A stretch of DNA of 58,658 nt from Eledone cirrhosa (Eukaryota). A program made the translations under genes and the position numbers. Positions 18,034 to 28,952 of the stretch are shown one piece after another (position 1 is the stretch's first letter; the number at the start of each line of letters is the position of its first letter). Where the stretch lies: NCBI GenBank assembly GCA_964016885.1, contig CAXHJY010000283.1:1-58658 (forward strand), given 5' to 3'. Below the pieces are notes generated by a model that was given only the letters and a program-made list of their open reading frames with translations, did no database searches and was not told the DNA's origin.

Positions 18034-18225
18034 AACGAAGGAAGTTTGGTAAGGAACCAGATGGACCATAACGCACCAGAGTACTCAAAACTTAGGGTAG
18101 TAGAGTGGGTAATAGGAAAATGTTTAACCCCGACGGCAGAGCTCAAGCCGTTTCCACGGCTATTTCAGTCCAGAAATAGCCGTCGAAACGGCTTGAGCTC
18201 TGCCGTCAGGGTTAAACATTTCCCC
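18034..18225. mobile_element. Fold-back family B copy
   Basis: ~52 bp arms around loop agtcca, tail ~18034-18112; arm contains GAAAC-GGC...GCC-GUC (3' half of an HHR); TA flanks. Confidence 0.8.
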
Positions 18226-18267
18226 ATATATATATATAACAGGAGGAAAAAAAAAAATATAACACCA

Positions 18268-18303
18268 CTGACGATGTTGCAGATGTGCAACGAAATATTT
18301 ATG
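18268..18303 (+). ncRNA. Degenerate hammerhead-like relic
   Basis: CUGACGA-u-GUUGCA(gaug)UGCAAC-GAAA present; helix I and cleavage triplet not conserved. Confidence 0.4.
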
Positions 18304-18821
18304 TAAATTATGTAAACTATATATATGTGTTTGTGTCTATATTGTATCTGTATTATTTTTGACCCTCGGTCAGTCAATGGCAACATTGAGGATCGAGTAA
18401 GTTAGATCGCAGATATAAAAGACAGCGAGAAGCGAAAACCAACCAAACAGTGAGTGTGTTCTGTTATTAATTCTGGCAATATTACGCAAATATGACTCTC
18501 CCCAAGTATATATATATATATATATATATATATATATATATATATATATATATATATATATATATATATATTGTTAAATAATAAATAAATAAACTAATAC
18601 CTTAACACTTCACACAAAGTAAAACATTTCGTTTTAATCATTTTCTAACCCAGAAAAGAGAGAGAGAGAGAGAGAGAGAGAGAGAGAGAGAGAGAGAGAC
18701 ACAAAAAAAAGGAAAAAAAAAAATTGTTCTTCCTCATAATCGTCTCTTTCTCTCTGTTTGCGTATATATATATATATACGTTTAAATTTGGTTCCGTTGG
18801 TATATATCTATTACGCAATTT

Positions 18822-18879
18822 ACACCTGATGAGGTCACCGGGTTCTTACACAACCTGGCCACTGAAATGTGCATAGTGT
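18822..18879 (+). ncRNA. Type-I hammerhead ribozyme in a short TA-flanked insert (~18780-18938)
   Basis: ACAC-CUGAUGA-imperfect helix II-GAAA-U(gugc)A-UA^-GUGU. Confidence 0.7.
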
Positions 18880-18951
18880 TTACAGTAATAACAAATAAGG
18901 AAATTCAACATATTTGGCCTCCTGTCATTTCACTTTATAATATATATATAT

Positions 18952-19146
18952 AACAAAGAAAGTGTAGTAAGGAACCAGGTAGACCATAACGCACCAGATT
19001 ACTCGATACTTAGGGTAGTAGAGTTGGTAATAGGAGAAGAATGAGGACCCCGACGGTTGAATTCCGGCCGTTTCGACAGCTACTAATTCAGATCTAGCTG
19101 TCGAAACGGCCGGAGTTCAGCCGTCGGGGTCCTGACTCTTCTCCTA
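18952..19146. mobile_element. Fold-back family B copy
   Basis: Arms ending ...GTTTCGACAGCTA / TAGCTGTCGAAAC..., same tail as 18034; TA flanks. Confidence 0.8.
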
Positions 19147-19175
19147 TATATATATGCATATATATATATATATAT

Positions 19176-19254
19176 ATTAAAATAACAGATTAACGTTTAA
19201 GCAACGAATCGCTGCTTTCACCCTTTACGGGATCTTCAAATTTATTATTATTAC
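19176..19254. mobile_element. Internally deleted family E element
   Basis: Left arm of 54169-54386 joined directly to its tail end at the shared TCTTCA. Confidence 0.7.
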
Positions 19255-25257: not shown

Positions 25258-25445
25258 TTTATCCCGGGTTCAATCGGGGGTAACCACAGTAAGAAATGTA
25301 CTCAATACATAGCAGAGTAGAAATATATAACATAGAAATGGCTGCTGTTTCATTCGGAGGAAATCATCAGGAAAGCCCTTTGATGATTTCCTGATGATTT
25401 TCTCCGAATGAAACAGTTCTAGTCCTGTAGAAGCCATTTCTATAT
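25258..25445. mobile_element. Fold-back family F
   Basis: Arms GTTTCATTCGGAGGAAATCATCAGGAAA / TTTCCTGATGATTTTCTCCGAATGAAAC, tail on the left, GAAAC-aguucua-GUC motif; TA flanks. Confidence 0.75.
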
Positions 25446-26059
25446 TATATATATATATAATAATATATATATATAAATGGCTATATATATATATATATAT
25501 ATGAACACATACACACATATATATATCATATACATGCATGTATACGTTCATACACACACACATACACACAAACATACATATGTGAAATAATATAGAGACC
25601 AGACAATACGACAATAACAGCCTGATGACGTCAGTCGCCACCGTACCAGTAATTGTGGGTTTGGTTGTTTTTATGTTGTTAGTGTTTGGGTATGGATATA
25701 CTTTTTGTTTATGTAGTGTGTAGCTTTATGGATTATATTTGCTAGAGATCGTAGTGAGCTTTGTTTTGGTGTCGATTTGTTTGCATTTAAAATAAGATAA
25801 TTAACATTCCATCTGTGTACTCACAGGGTCATCAATATGTGTGTGTGTATATATATATATATATATATATATATATATACATACATACATACATACATAC
25901 AGAAAGAGAGAGAGAGAGAGAGAGAGAGAGAGAGAGAGAGAGAGAGAGAGAGAGAGAGAGAGAGAGAGAGAGAGAGAGAGAGAGCGTAGGTGCATGTGCC
26001 TGTGTATTTATTTGCTTTGCAAGTTTCAGGTAAGAAACACTATCGCATATACGGTGGCA

Positions 26060-27850
26060 TCAACTACTTAAAATACGCTAATGTCACATGTCACATATCA
26101 CAAAAATACTCAAGTAGAGGAGGCGGATATCGGCGTCAGCATCAGCATCACTGGCGACGTGGTCAACCTGTTTATGTTATGGTTGGACAACAGTCTCAAT
26201 AAACGCTAAGTAGAGAGCTCCATAGCCCTCACCATGTACTCTCGCTATGTAGATGTCTGGTAAAACATAGTGGTAAAACACTGCCACAACAGAATACCAA
26301 TGAGTTTGAACTAGAAGCTAACACCAGGGAGAGCATCCAACAAATAGCTAACTTCATCGAGCAGACTATTAGAGTAACGGTAAACTACCCAACTAAGCAC
26401 CAAAACCGTAGACTACCTGTGTTAGAAACGGAACTCTGGCTGGAAACTAAGAATGACGAAGCCAACATCCTCCATTCGCATTATGCCAAACCCATGACTT
26501 CCAAGTACATGATCAACCTGAGCTCAGCAATCTCAATATATTGATAACGGACCTAGGAAGGAGGAAGAAAAATGTCTCCCACGTGTGCGATCCCACAGAA
26601 TTAGAGAGACACACCCAGCACTTCATCTACCGCTTACTGTTCTCTTGATACAGTCAAAGAGACAGGATGAAAATAGAACAACACTGGCAGGTAGATAAGG
26701 TATATAGATAGATATATGGGGAAATAGATAGGTTAGATGAAAAATATATAATTCGGAATGAAAAGTTTTCTCCTGTATCTTAAAGGAGAGAAAAGGAATT
26801 AAGTCATTTATGGGACGTGACGTGCAATGACGTTCTCCGCCTCCAACTTAGCCGCTTCGGCCACAAACCCCAGTACTAGGTATTGAAGTATTTAAAACTA
26901 TTCAACAGAATTCGTAATATAATCGGCTTGTCTCCCCACAGCCCCGGCGGACAGAATAGAGAAGGCGTTTCCCCGAGGACGACAAGGGAGACAGGATTAA
27001 GATGTACAAATGAGCCATAGAAAAATTCGAATCGATCATAGAGAATGACACGAATGGGATTTGCTCGTTTTACATGAGCAAATCATGGAATAGTATAGAA
27101 AAGACTAAGAGGAAGATAGGGAATCCCAACACATCGTATGGCAGCTCAAAATACCAGAGTCATGTTGAACGACGCTAACACTAGAGGTGAAATAACGTAT
27201 TGGTTTTGGAGTGCCTTAGATAAACTGAACCTAACAATTAAAGTGGTAGAAAAGCCAGGAACTCCAATAAAATCCCTGATCAGTAGGATATACTCTTTTA
27301 AGAAAAACCCTGTACTGATAGTAACTCTGTAGTGTGTGAACTACAAAACTAGAAATGCCGTCTATAGGATAAGATGTGCAGAGAGGCGGCGTAGAAATAT
27401 GACAATAACATTTACAGGTAAGATAGCCCATAGCTAGGGTGAAGGAACACTGGTGAGAACTCAGAATGGAGAAAAGTTCGTCATTGCTTCAACAATATGC
27501 CAAACTAGAACGCGCGGGTTCAATAGATAACATTGAAGTAAAATCTTATCCACACATAAGACCGACAAAACGCTAAAAAAAAAAATAAAAAAAATAGAGT
27601 CGACACATATAATAGTGAACAGACCGAACCTCAATAGAAAACACGAATAAAATAGTAAAACCCACAACCCACAGCCTAAGGATTGAGATCAAGTAAAGTA
27701 ACATAATGTGACACACACAGGAATAAAAAAAAAATATAAGACCAGAAAGAAGATGAAACACAGAAGGAAATAGTCATTGAGGCAATCACAGAATGTCTGA
27801 TGAAAAACATTGACAAACTAACTAATAACTAATAATAAGGCTGAAGTGTG
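26060..27850 (+). mobile_element. Degenerate Penelope-like retroelement (RT, Cys linker, GIY-YIG, 3' UTR); Nematis-like by recalled motifs
   Basis: IGVSI..TGDVVNLFMLW...YSRYVD; IQQIANFI...VTVNYPTKHQNRRLPVLE; HSHYAKPM; IKVVEKPGTPIK; VYRIRC...RVKEH...NLNRKHE*; degenerate HHR 27772-27814 homologous to 6234-6278; many stops and frameshifts. Confidence 0.85.
26800..26880 (+). mobile_element. CRE-like fragment inside an insertion interrupting the PLE
   Basis: tgggacgtgacgtgc...ctccaacttagccgcttcggccacaaacccc matches sequences near 13665 and 40055. Confidence 0.6.
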
Positions 27851-27869
27851 TTTTTATATGCATTATTGA

Positions 27870-28115
27870 AATGAGAGATCACAGCTCTGATACTATGGGC
27901 ATGTGGTTAGAATGTCTCAGGAAAGATTCGCTGGATAGATTTTACGGGCAAAACCAACCGGCAGGAGACCAAGGAGTAGACCCCCAGCAAGATGGTTCGA
28001 TAACATCCATGAGCTTGGCTGGTCTTGCTTGGAGATCCAGCCGGATCAGTTGGATACGGTAGCTTCTTATATTACTCGCTGGAAGGAGTGTTTGAGCACT
28101 CTGTCCCTCATGATC
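27870..28115 (+). mobile_element. RTE-clade LINE 3' fragment
   Basis: YYGHVVRMSQER...KPTGRRPRSRP...RWFDNIHEL. Confidence 0.7.
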
Positions 28116-28468
28116 ATCACCACGTATAACAATATTATATATGTGTGTGTGAGTGTGTTTGAACAATAAAAACATAAGTCAACTGTAGGTAGAGAGTGAA
28201 TTCGTTGTTTTAAGATCGTTTCTGAGTGTCTATTGAACGGTGGAGATGGATGTATCGACCAGCATGGTAGTGGTTATGTTACTACCTATTACTAGTCTCG
28301 AAGTTCCAGTTCAATCGGCCGTCCTCCTCAGAAACACTAAACTAAGCTCCACCACCAACACCAGGTGGACTACGATATATATATATATATATATATATAT
28401 ATATATATATGTATATATATATATATATATATATATATATATATATATATATATATATATATATATAT

Positions 28469-28738
28469 AATTAGAAATTGAACAACACAAAACAATTACT
28501 CCATTTATTATATGGAGTAGTCAAATTACATTGTAACTATTAAAGGAAATAAACTTCGTTTAGGGACACAATACTATGGTAAAGGACGTACGTCTACATG
28601 TGAGAACACAGATACCTAAATATGGAATGTTACGCGATGCCCCCTCCCCCCTGTATTGTACCATTTCTAATTAAATAGCTCTGTTTTATACATAGAGCAC
28701 TATTTTTTCCTTTGCTTTTCCTTCGGAATTACCTAACG
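28469..28738. mobile_element. TA-flanked insert with 21 bp inverted arms and a family-D-like tail
   Basis: 28469-28489 is inverse to 28652-28672 (3 mismatches); tail ctctg...tacatagagcact...tcctttg resembles 16238-16290. Confidence 0.55.
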
Positions 28739-28758
28739 TATATATATATATATATATA

Positions 28759-28952
28759 TAGGAAAAAGTATGACCCCGACGGCAGAGCTGAAGCCGTTTC
28801 GACGGCTATTTCTGTACCATAAATAGCCGTCGAAACGGCTTGAGTTCTGCCGTCGGGATCATACTTTTTCCTATTACCCACTCTACTACCCCAAGTATTG
28901 AGTACTCTGGTGCGTTATGGTCCATCTGGTTCCTTACCACAATTCCTTCGTG
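28759..28952. mobile_element. Fold-back family B copy, opposite orientation
   Basis: Hairpin 28759-28874 followed by the reverse-complement tail; TA flanks. Confidence 0.8.

Follow-up and report, generated by a model that had tools for sequence, protein, structure and literature searches.

The short DNA hairpins in the window, the 58,658-nucleotide stretch of DNA analysed here, each consist of two truncated, hammerhead-carrying Penelope-like element (PLE) ends placed head to head within (TA)n. The PLE 'tail' is present on one hairpin arm only, and the partner arm is tail-less. The fold point is likely the start of the RNA (a capped transcript start) and is probably not set by the ribozyme fold. 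With a probability of roughly two in three, the hairpins were made by the end-to-end joining of two run-off cDNAs from both cut target strands. The underlying elements belong to a known class and are ordinary representatives of it, and the hairpin architecture has already been published. As far as tested, the hairpins are not an assembly artefact: an assembly fold-back was rejected because copies number in the tens of thousands and their junctions vary, and joined hairpin forms were also found in contigs of one other DNA sample.

Hairpin loci, ribozymes and parental copies

Family B is represented by four copies, in which positions are counted from the proposed transcription start (+1). The hairpin at 18035..18225 (apex ~18170) has its tailed arm on the minus strand (18035-18166), ending at +7, and its tail-less arm on the plus strand, beginning at the proposed +1 (18167); the predicted cleavage site follows 18207. 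At 18953..19150 (apex ~19088) the tailed arm, again on the minus strand, ends near +11 and the tail-less arm begins near +3. This hairpin belongs to a second subfamily, whose parent is represented by copy L132 and whose helix II covaries when read by eye. The hairpin at 28760..28952 (apex ~28816) has a tail-less minus arm (28760-28814) and a tailed plus arm from ~28817, with predicted cleavage after 28854 and the tail at ~28873-28951. The fourth copy (12468..12624) is a collapsed hairpin whose tailed minus arm extends to ~+5 and whose tail-less arm begins approximately at the predicted cleavage site.

At the apices near 18170, 19088 and 28816 each arm contains a type I hammerhead reduced to its 3' half (helix II 3' strand, GAAA, helix III, GUC), with the 5' half missing, as the first-pass annotation had described. 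Its placement of the B apex at the helix II loop was also borne out: helix II of the parent is long, and the apex falls within its distal loop region. The B core is of the U3-A8 type, with position 7 free (all four bases occur in the 100 matches listed).

For family F the annotation had proposed a 3' half without a properly placed 5' core, a GUC cleavage triplet and an apex at the helix II loop. This description had to be revised. In the hairpin at 25257..25444 the tailed minus arm extends to its own +1 at ~25379, and the plus arm (25387-25444) retains a canonical, correctly positioned core (25391-25397) together with helices II and III. Covariation of helix I across three subfamilies, as read by eye, points to GUA (predicted cleavage after 25429) as the triplet, and the apex sits at the 5' edge of helix I. 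A second F copy with partly deleted arms (52978..53138) has its core in the minus arm, which extends just upstream of +1.

In the family E hairpin (54170..54387, proposed +1 at 54225, tail ~54295-54387) both arms end at +4 and overlap in a 7-nt near-palindrome centred on 54231. This base does occupy the second position of the core (54230-54236), as had been noted, but the canonical CUGAAGA arises only by hairpin symmetry: the parents have A at this position, giving a U4A core. Cleavage is predicted after 54270. A deletion derivative of E (19177..19256) consists of an inverted arm fused to the tail end via a 6-nt microhomology. Family A (1020..1315, apex 1166 at the proposed +1; near-copies with apices at 3509 and 5499) carries a complete minimal U3-A8 hammerhead from 1208, ~42 nt downstream of the apex. 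These A hairpins lie beyond the 18034..28952 region and provide a natural control. Thus the idea that the ribozyme is destroyed in the product applies to the B arms, which lack the 5' half, but not to the F and A arms, which retain it.

Minimum-energy folding recovered helices I-III of B and did not recover the F and E folds. In an Rfam scan the hammerhead was absent from the best 150 of 331 matches, which were microsatellite-driven and of miRNA type. An inverted-repeat search of the sequence was likewise dominated by microsatellites.

Exact matches to the B tail numbered 34,651, and the best matches were 93-100% identical to the window copy, indicating that B copies are young. The exact parental string that had been predicted for B occurred at chance level (7 matches versus 9 for the control, none in B context). 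Non-inverted B parents with core and helix I upstream of the apex do exist; they have the U3-A8 core with free position 7 (2,330 matches versus 0 for the control). A looser pattern combining core and 3' half (67 matches versus 1) was rejected as a marker of B parents, as all 30 matches inspected proved to be chimeras or to resemble parents only through junction or flank sequence. The upstream string predicted for F is absent from the F parent.

The B parent adjoins pieces of an ORF with reverse transcriptase (RT) and GIY-YIG-like motifs (read in L098, L099, L101 and L116; the copies are frameshifted), and B parents are found both as partial tandems and as long head-to-head pairs (L098, L101). 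The PLE layout of pLTRs arising from partial tandems, an inverted truncated copy and a tail at one end is seen in L101, L102 and L098 and in 79 of 100 listed B copies. A Pfam scan returned no family for either of two ORF pieces. A linker with four Cys is present between RT and EN, but of the CCHH motif typical of EN only one Cys was seen between the two GIY-YIG half-motifs in L101; the tentative clade name EN+ (Neptune/Nematis type) rests on this Cys-rich linker as described in the accessible part of PMC8557442. Families F, E and A share the B layout and were assigned as putative PLEs by architecture and ribozyme alone. Two other classes were considered and rejected. Non-LTR retrozymes are defined by head-to-tail tandem units with complete hammerheads in at least two consecutive ones (10.64898/2026.07.22.740005, accessible part), and the copies here are head-to-head or single. 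A MITE or fold-back DNA transposon does not agree with arms of unequal length, a variable apex and the continuity of family B with an RT element.

Position of the fold point

The first-pass annotation held that the point of inversion is set by the fold of the ribozyme. Relative to the ribozyme, the apex lies somewhere different in each of the four families (distal helix II in B, the edge of helix I in F, the start of the core in E, and ~40 nt upstream of the ribozyme in A), yet it shares one promoter-like position in all of them, which argues against this claim. Relative to the stop, core N3 lies at -43 to -45 in B, +6 in E, +7 in F and +43 in A. The apex follows a fixed A, and in families A, B and F a TATA-like box lies ~30 nt upstream of this base. 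Such a box was found at -29 to -31 in 29 of 32 B parents, 17 of 20 F parents and 4 of 7 A parents; its absence from all 43 E parents speaks against the start-site model. The probability of this spacing arising by chance in three of four families is ~2e-6, a post hoc value obtained from copies that are not independent. Each +1 is an AG following pyrimidines and lies in an initiator-like context. On this reading the apex would meet the ribozyme only through the overlap of the latter with the promoter inside the repeat.

The base preceding +1 was counted by hand at unique sites in copies that lie directly on (TA)n. An excess of untemplated G was seen in B (16 G versus 5 A of 82, p = 0.013), E (18 G versus 1 C of 81, p = 4e-5) and F (20 G versus 5 A of 51, p = 0.002); in A it was not significant (11 G versus 7 A of 84, p = 0.24). 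At control positions in B, G preceded +5 in 1 of 29 and +7 in 3 of 28 cases. In L1 an extra G marks copying of the cap (PMC11702581 and PMC9341517, accessible parts). As the extra G also precedes A at B +6 (8 of 33) and F +2 (7 of 31) and is not significant in A, it could partly reflect general untemplated addition. Taken with the TATA-like box of A, B and F and the initiator-like context, the excess of G makes it likely that the fixed A is a transcription start.

Other explanations of the stop were considered. A splice-acceptor or lariat stop at the AG of +1 was rejected, as the arms retain the AG and a branch point would probably lie only 4-5 nt away. Spliced-leader addition was rejected because no shared leader precedes the stops in copies on (TA)n. 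The self-cleavage site as the main stop rule accounts for only 7 of 91 tailed B arms.

It is also conceivable, if unlikely, that two cDNAs were joined after RT had stalled at RNA structure or a bound protein in the ribozyme region and not at the RNA 5' end. The B stop lies on the 3' strand of the distal helix II hairpin, the E and F stops coincide with the first base of helix I, and the start site itself is only inferred. Furthermore, of the 19 B ends that lie between +18 and +60, 7 are at +41 to +43, the predicted cleavage site, which suggests that the ribozyme sets some ends, in a region confounded by G-run microhomology. However, RT would have to traverse the stronger proximal helix II of B before reaching the stop, the stop strand in E and F would already be unpaired once RT had read its partner, and no ribozyme element lies near the stop in A. 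Stalling also leaves the -30 spacing of the TATA-like box and the extra G unexplained.

Arm geometry and joining

The census of B arms covered the first 100 listed tail matches, 29 of which were corrected by hand; the parse of F and E junctions was uncurated. It comprised 79 hairpins, 10 single arms, 9 read-through copies and 2 complex ones. Arm ends clustered between -6 and +8 (126 of 170), with 23 of 170 arms ending 1-6 nt upstream of +1. In 59 of the 79 hairpins the junction either carried an insertion or showed an overlap of at most 1 nt. The tailed arm was the longer one in 35, the tail-less arm in 31, and both were equal in 13. For the commonest junction type, a hand count of 100 listed entries placed the spacer on the tailed arm in 34 and on the tail-less arm in 28 (p = 0.53). 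Later flipping of the spacer between arms could blur any arm asymmetry.

These figures bear on the earlier proposal that cDNA copied through a self-complementary part of the ribozyme snaps back and primes itself, so that the fold sets the apex. A tail-less arm that is the longer one, as in 31 of the 66 unequal hairpins, cannot come from fold-back of tailed cDNA; the hairpin at 18035..18225, with its tail-less arm longer at the apex, has such a geometry. Strict snap-back geometry was seen in 2 of 79 B hairpins and its mirror image in 9 of 79. The loose version fits 18 of 79, and the 34 entries with the spacer on the tailed arm are as predicted, but the mirror geometry is equally common (28 of 100). 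Snap-back would readily account for arms of the same subfamily, and junctions concentrate at a small native B hairpin with a 6-nt loop around the stop (3,264 matches to the pooled pattern), so that local complementarity matters. This small hairpin is not conserved in every subfamily, whereas the initiator-like context is. Some junctions use complementarity of helix III or helix I (L138, L216), and self-annealing of cDNA has been proposed for some L1 foldbacks (PMC11702581, accessible part). Many other junctions are blunt or contain insertions with both arms at the stop, one fixed inner site ends the tail-less arm, and family A folds ~40 nt from its own ribozyme. Snap-back as the main route is thus largely refuted, and we consider this origin of the hairpins quite improbable. 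Other parts of the proposal were upheld: the hairpins are products of reverse transcription of a hammerhead-bearing RNA, and ribozyme stems or small palindromes supply microhomology at some junctions.

In the preferred reading, two cDNAs would be primed on both cut target strands in (TA)n, at the two internal start sites of the element, and each would be extended as far as the capped 5' end of the RNA and run off there. Priming on the 5'-proximal repeat of the RNA may yield a run-off ('strong-stop-like') cDNA of 60-140 nt. Joining would then occur by host end joining with trimming, and in a minority of insertions ribozyme stems or small palindromes would probably assist by supplying microhomology. 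In B, the two arms nearly always belong to one subfamily: 55 of 78 arm pairs were identical (9.7 expected at random), 0 of 57 were discordant at one diagnostic base, and one clear discordant pair (3 nt) was found. The two cDNAs must therefore usually share one RNA or source locus, which would require strand displacement as a hypothetical step.

Finally, the short hairpins might be long inverted insertions that were later collapsed by deletion, or spacer-flipped by template switching, with apices reflecting repair. Long head-to-head pairs do exist (L098, L099), and some copies show microhomology deletions or, in one case, a microinversion (19177-19256; L118, L189). This origin is nevertheless very improbable: single non-inverted copies on (TA)n begin at the same position with the extra G, deletions in four families would not all arrive at a base with promoter spacing, and the copies are young.

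Relation to known retroelements

LTR retrotransposons form minus-strand strong-stop DNA, a short tRNA-primed cDNA that starts near the RNA 5' end and runs off the cap. By comparison, the cDNA proposed here would be primed by cut target DNA and made twice, and no strand transfer is seen. A wider scheme can be sketched, tentatively and as a rather unlikely one. LTR-like strong-stop cDNA would form on both arms of the target break; a hairpin would result when neither jumps to the 3' repeat, and a pseudo-LTR tandem would be rebuilt when one does. As the B promoter would split the hammerhead, the mRNA would start with half a ribozyme, completed only by the 5' half at the other end of the RNA, as a bipartite ribozyme joining the ends. 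Terminal palindromes overlapping hammerheads are reportedly described in the Terminon paper.

Canonical EN+ PLE insertions, as far as described in PMC8557442 and PMC3846280, likewise form complex insertions in which an inverted, 5'-truncated copy adjoins the pLTR at the 5' end and an optional tail is confined to one arm. They also prefer (TA)n as a target, have palindromes at the 5' end of the pLTR, and carry a TATA plus initiator-like sequence within it. An internal promoter with an initiator in the repeat has been reported for Penelope (PMC2377424, PMC3846280; accessible parts), and the start site of the Drosophila virilis element is mapped (PMC2377424). The insertions described here differ in being mostly 120-300 bp long, with tails of ~80-100 nt versus 30-40 nt, and in that both arms stop at a single base with promoter spacing and an extra G; the accessible text of PMC8557442 and PMC3846280 makes no tie between inversion point and transcript start. 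Nor was such a tie found for PLEs in the searchable literature, although Arkhipova 2006 and Evgen'ev and Arkhipova 2005 may contain it. The origin of tandem and inverted PLE structures is named an open question in the accessible part of PMC8557442.

What the tens of thousands of minimal insertions add is a precise rule: each arm, independently of the other, stops at one promoter-spaced base, and an extra G is often present. Should the cap lie at this base, the inverted copy would be a second target-primed cDNA and PLEs would have a strong-stop-like intermediate, which would tie their mechanism both to twin priming in L1 and to LTR elements. A fold point at the RNA start would hint at the copying route of this poorly understood class, and PLE start sites could be read from genome sequence alone.

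The pLTR hammerheads of PLEs described in the accessible part of PMC4209133 are also type I ribozymes located in the repeat, include U3-A8 cores (as in B and A), and have many solo or opposite-strand copies, with opposite-strand pairs 100-700 bp apart. Unlike these, B, E and F have a full and not a minimal helix III, the core of E is of the U4A form, U faces U where helix II begins at its base in both E and F, and the proposed start splits the B ribozyme.

In vitro, the protein of the Anolis PLE Poseidon cuts and extends both strands of an AT-rich target, begins synthesis at two internal positions that delimit the tail, and works with RNA that is uncleaved (PMC11167929, accessible part), in keeping with the priming proposed here. 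Joining of cDNAs and a 5' stop do not feature in the accessible text of that study. The Poseidon ORF begins inside the ribozyme, whereas the B ORF appears to start well downstream of the tail.

In L1 twin priming, two cDNAs from the two target ends are likewise joined in inverted orientation, and full-length 5' ends carry an extra G (PMC11702581 and PMC9341517, accessible parts). The L1 cDNAs copy neighbouring stretches of the RNA that for the most part do not overlap, whereas those proposed here would overlap almost fully, both reaching the 5' end and thus giving a hairpin. A minority of B copies, with a tailed arm that ends near the inner start site, look L1-like.

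Hairpins in the window and their assignment

The sequence of the window is AT-rich, and microsatellites are abundant. Nine hairpins were detected by a local palindrome scan. Family A is represented by three near-copies (apices at 1166, 3509 and 5499); the others are three hairpins of family B (18170, 19088 and 28816), one each of families F (25380) and E (54231), and one not assigned to a family (16125). All hairpins of families A, B, E and F are inserted in (TA)n, and all have unequal outer ends, one arm being longer. The family A copies (1020-1315, 3340-3660 and 5400-5640) each contain a minimal U3-A8 hammerhead that is complete and lies some 42 nt from the apex; their flanks are alike, and they are probably not independent. 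In the unassigned hairpin (16014-16237), a 6-nt loop joins the two perfectly matching 109-bp arms of an inverted repeat; no hammerhead was seen in it.

Other features of the window include: (i) a MITE-like element in (TA)n at 15126-15300, whose terminal inverted repeats of about 25 bp flank a middle part that is not palindromic; (ii) two decayed hammerhead-like cores in the same orientation (21590-21620 and 21745-21775; about 155 bp between them), possibly repeats of another Penelope-like element (PLE) family; (iii) decayed sequence at 26040-27500 resembling, by eye, an RT-bearing retroelement; (iv) a tandem array with a unit of roughly 35 bp (56790-58090).

In the 3.0-Gb genome, exact matches to the tail numbered 34,651 for B, 10,332 for F and 13,897 for E, with no control match for any of the three. 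ORF pieces have parents of B, i.e. non-inverted copies continuing upstream of the apex, at their 3' end; encoded in these pieces are a catalytic motif of RT, a Cys-rich linker and a GIY-YIG-like domain. The parents occur in partial tandems and also as long head-to-head pairs of which one side bears a tail (loci L098 and L101). No Pfam family was recognised in these ORF pieces. The layout equals that reported for EN+ PLEs (PMC8557442, PMC3846280). For families E, F and A, the assignment to PLEs uses layout and ribozyme alone. The elements themselves are judged ordinary and their hairpin architecture is already known; the mechanistic rule they carry is testable.

Parental ribozymes and the position of arm ends

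The first-pass annotation had proposed that the ribozyme fold dictates the inversion point, and had predicted an exact parental string for B. This string yielded seven matches versus nine for the control, none of the seven within B sequence. Real parents were nevertheless reached upstream in two of the 30 loci with the best long-arm matches and in one further locus (L050, L055 and L027); upstream of the arm they carry a helix I strand, a U3-A8 core, 1-2 unpaired bases, a helix II of 9 bp and a loop of about 35 nt. Since the corresponding pattern with position 7 left free gave 2,330 genomic matches versus none for the control, B parents do possess a core and helix I complementarity, in the spirit of that proposal. 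PMC4209133 already reports U3-A8 cores in PLEs, as well as pairs of hammerheads on opposite strands. In family F, helix I of the parents covaries with the strand 3' of a GUA triplet; the core supposed to be missing from its arms is already present in those of the window. The canonical core claimed for E is a product of hairpin symmetry; the parents carry A at core position 4. In E parents (e.g. L267) the core is of the U4A form, two U residues face each other at the helix II base, and helix I is extended and interrupted; dozens of copies conserve this form.

Arm ends were analysed for B in the first 100 listed tail matches, all retrieved (automated parse with 29 hand corrections), and for F and E in 72 and 79 copies, nearly all from 100 listed each. 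The B matches comprised 79 hairpins, 10 single arms, 9 read-through copies and 2 complex cases, and 126 of 170 arm ends lay within -6 to +8 of one A (+1). In uncurated data, ends fell in the same interval around the family's own fixed A for 29/48 tailed and 26/38 tail-less arms of F, and for 15/28 and 11/16, respectively, of E. A stop of the same kind was seen by eye in 29 of 29 family A matches. Read-through past the proposed start occurred in 17/72 F and 34/79 E copies, far more commonly in E than in B (9/100).

Counted from the fixed A, the first position of the ribozyme core is -43 to -45 for B, +6 for E, +7 for F and +43 for A. Because this offset differs among families, the apex is not tied to any single ribozyme element, contrary to what had been proposed. 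For a minority of B ends, the position may be determined by the ribozyme: of the 19 between +18 and +60, 7 coincide with the predicted site of cleavage (p 2e-4), a result confounded by a run of G. Separately, the two B arms are parted at the apices of L133, L191, L040 and L008 by 9-23 nt of inserted poly(A) or poly(T), and the tailed arm of L118 contains a microinversion within a near-palindrome that reaches from the end of helix II into the start of helix III.

The fixed A as a candidate transcript start

A TATA-like box starting at -29 to -31 was found in 29/32 B, 17/20 F and 4/7 A parents, and in none of 43 E parents. Family A parents display CCAAT- and TATA-like boxes. The context of the fixed A in B and E is initiator-like. 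The base preceding +1 was scored in copies lying directly on (TA)n, unique sites being counted by hand among 100 listed matches per family. Non-native G preceded +1 at 16/82 sites in B (A at 5), 18/81 in E (A at 11, C at 1) and 20/51 in F (A at 5, native C at 14); the 11/84 in A (A at 7, native C at 35) were not significant. In B controls, G preceded +5 in 1/29, +7 in 3/28 and the A at +6 in 8/33 cases; the last may stem from a second start or from untemplated addition of a general kind. For L1, an extra G is a sign of cap copying (PMC11702581, PMC9341517), and for Penelope the promoter and initiator are located within its repeat (PMC2377424, PMC3846280). From these sequence features we infer that the fixed A is probably the transcription start. 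In B the ORF appears to start well downstream of the tail, as would fit a promoter located in the upstream repeat. A link between PLE inversion point and transcript start was not found in the literature searched, key subscription papers lying outside its reach.

Origin of the two arms

Snap-back, in which a cDNA folds back and copies itself, had been put forward as the source of the hairpins. If a tailed cDNA folds back, the tailed arm must be the longer, reaching further 5', with a stem-matched overlap and no insertion; a tail-less cDNA gains no tail by self-copying. Among the 79 B hairpins the tailed arm was longer in 35, the tail-less arm in 31, and 13 were equal. Only two satisfied the strict snap-back geometry, as against nine for its mirror image; a loose version admitted 18, and 59 had an overlap of at most 1 nt or an insertion instead. 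The commonest B junction class has 3,264 matches; of 100 listed, 34 had the spacer on the tailed arm and 28 on the tail-less arm, and 38 were mixed. The B copy at 18035-18225 has a geometry impossible by snap-back, and in contigs from one other DNA sample the tail-less arm was joined at many points far along the tailed arm. Two points count against separate cDNAs as the source of the arms. Of 78 hairpins parsed among 183 tail contexts, 55 had both arms from the same subfamily, the expectation being 9.7, and a single pair was clearly discordant, so that two cDNAs would usually derive from a single RNA or locus. Flipping of the spacer after insertion could also blur arm asymmetry, but would demand a very high rate. 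What the first-pass annotation observed is confirmed in part, and snap-back is largely unsupported.

In PMC11167929, both strands are reported to be cut and extended by a PLE protein, which begins at two internal sites bounding the tail and uses uncleaved RNA. In the two-cDNA reading, priming on the 5'-proximal repeat would yield two short cDNAs running off the cap, whose ends would be trimmed and then joined, at times using complementarity from stems or small palindromes. Such complementarity at some junctions is the part of the fold-based proposal that survives. The proposed start would divide the ribozyme in B; RNAs of E and F would begin at its first base, and in A it would lie 40 nt inside the RNA. 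The centre of L017 is a three-part chimera of an inverted B arm, an inverted F arm and a tailed F arm, which shows that ends of different families can be joined.
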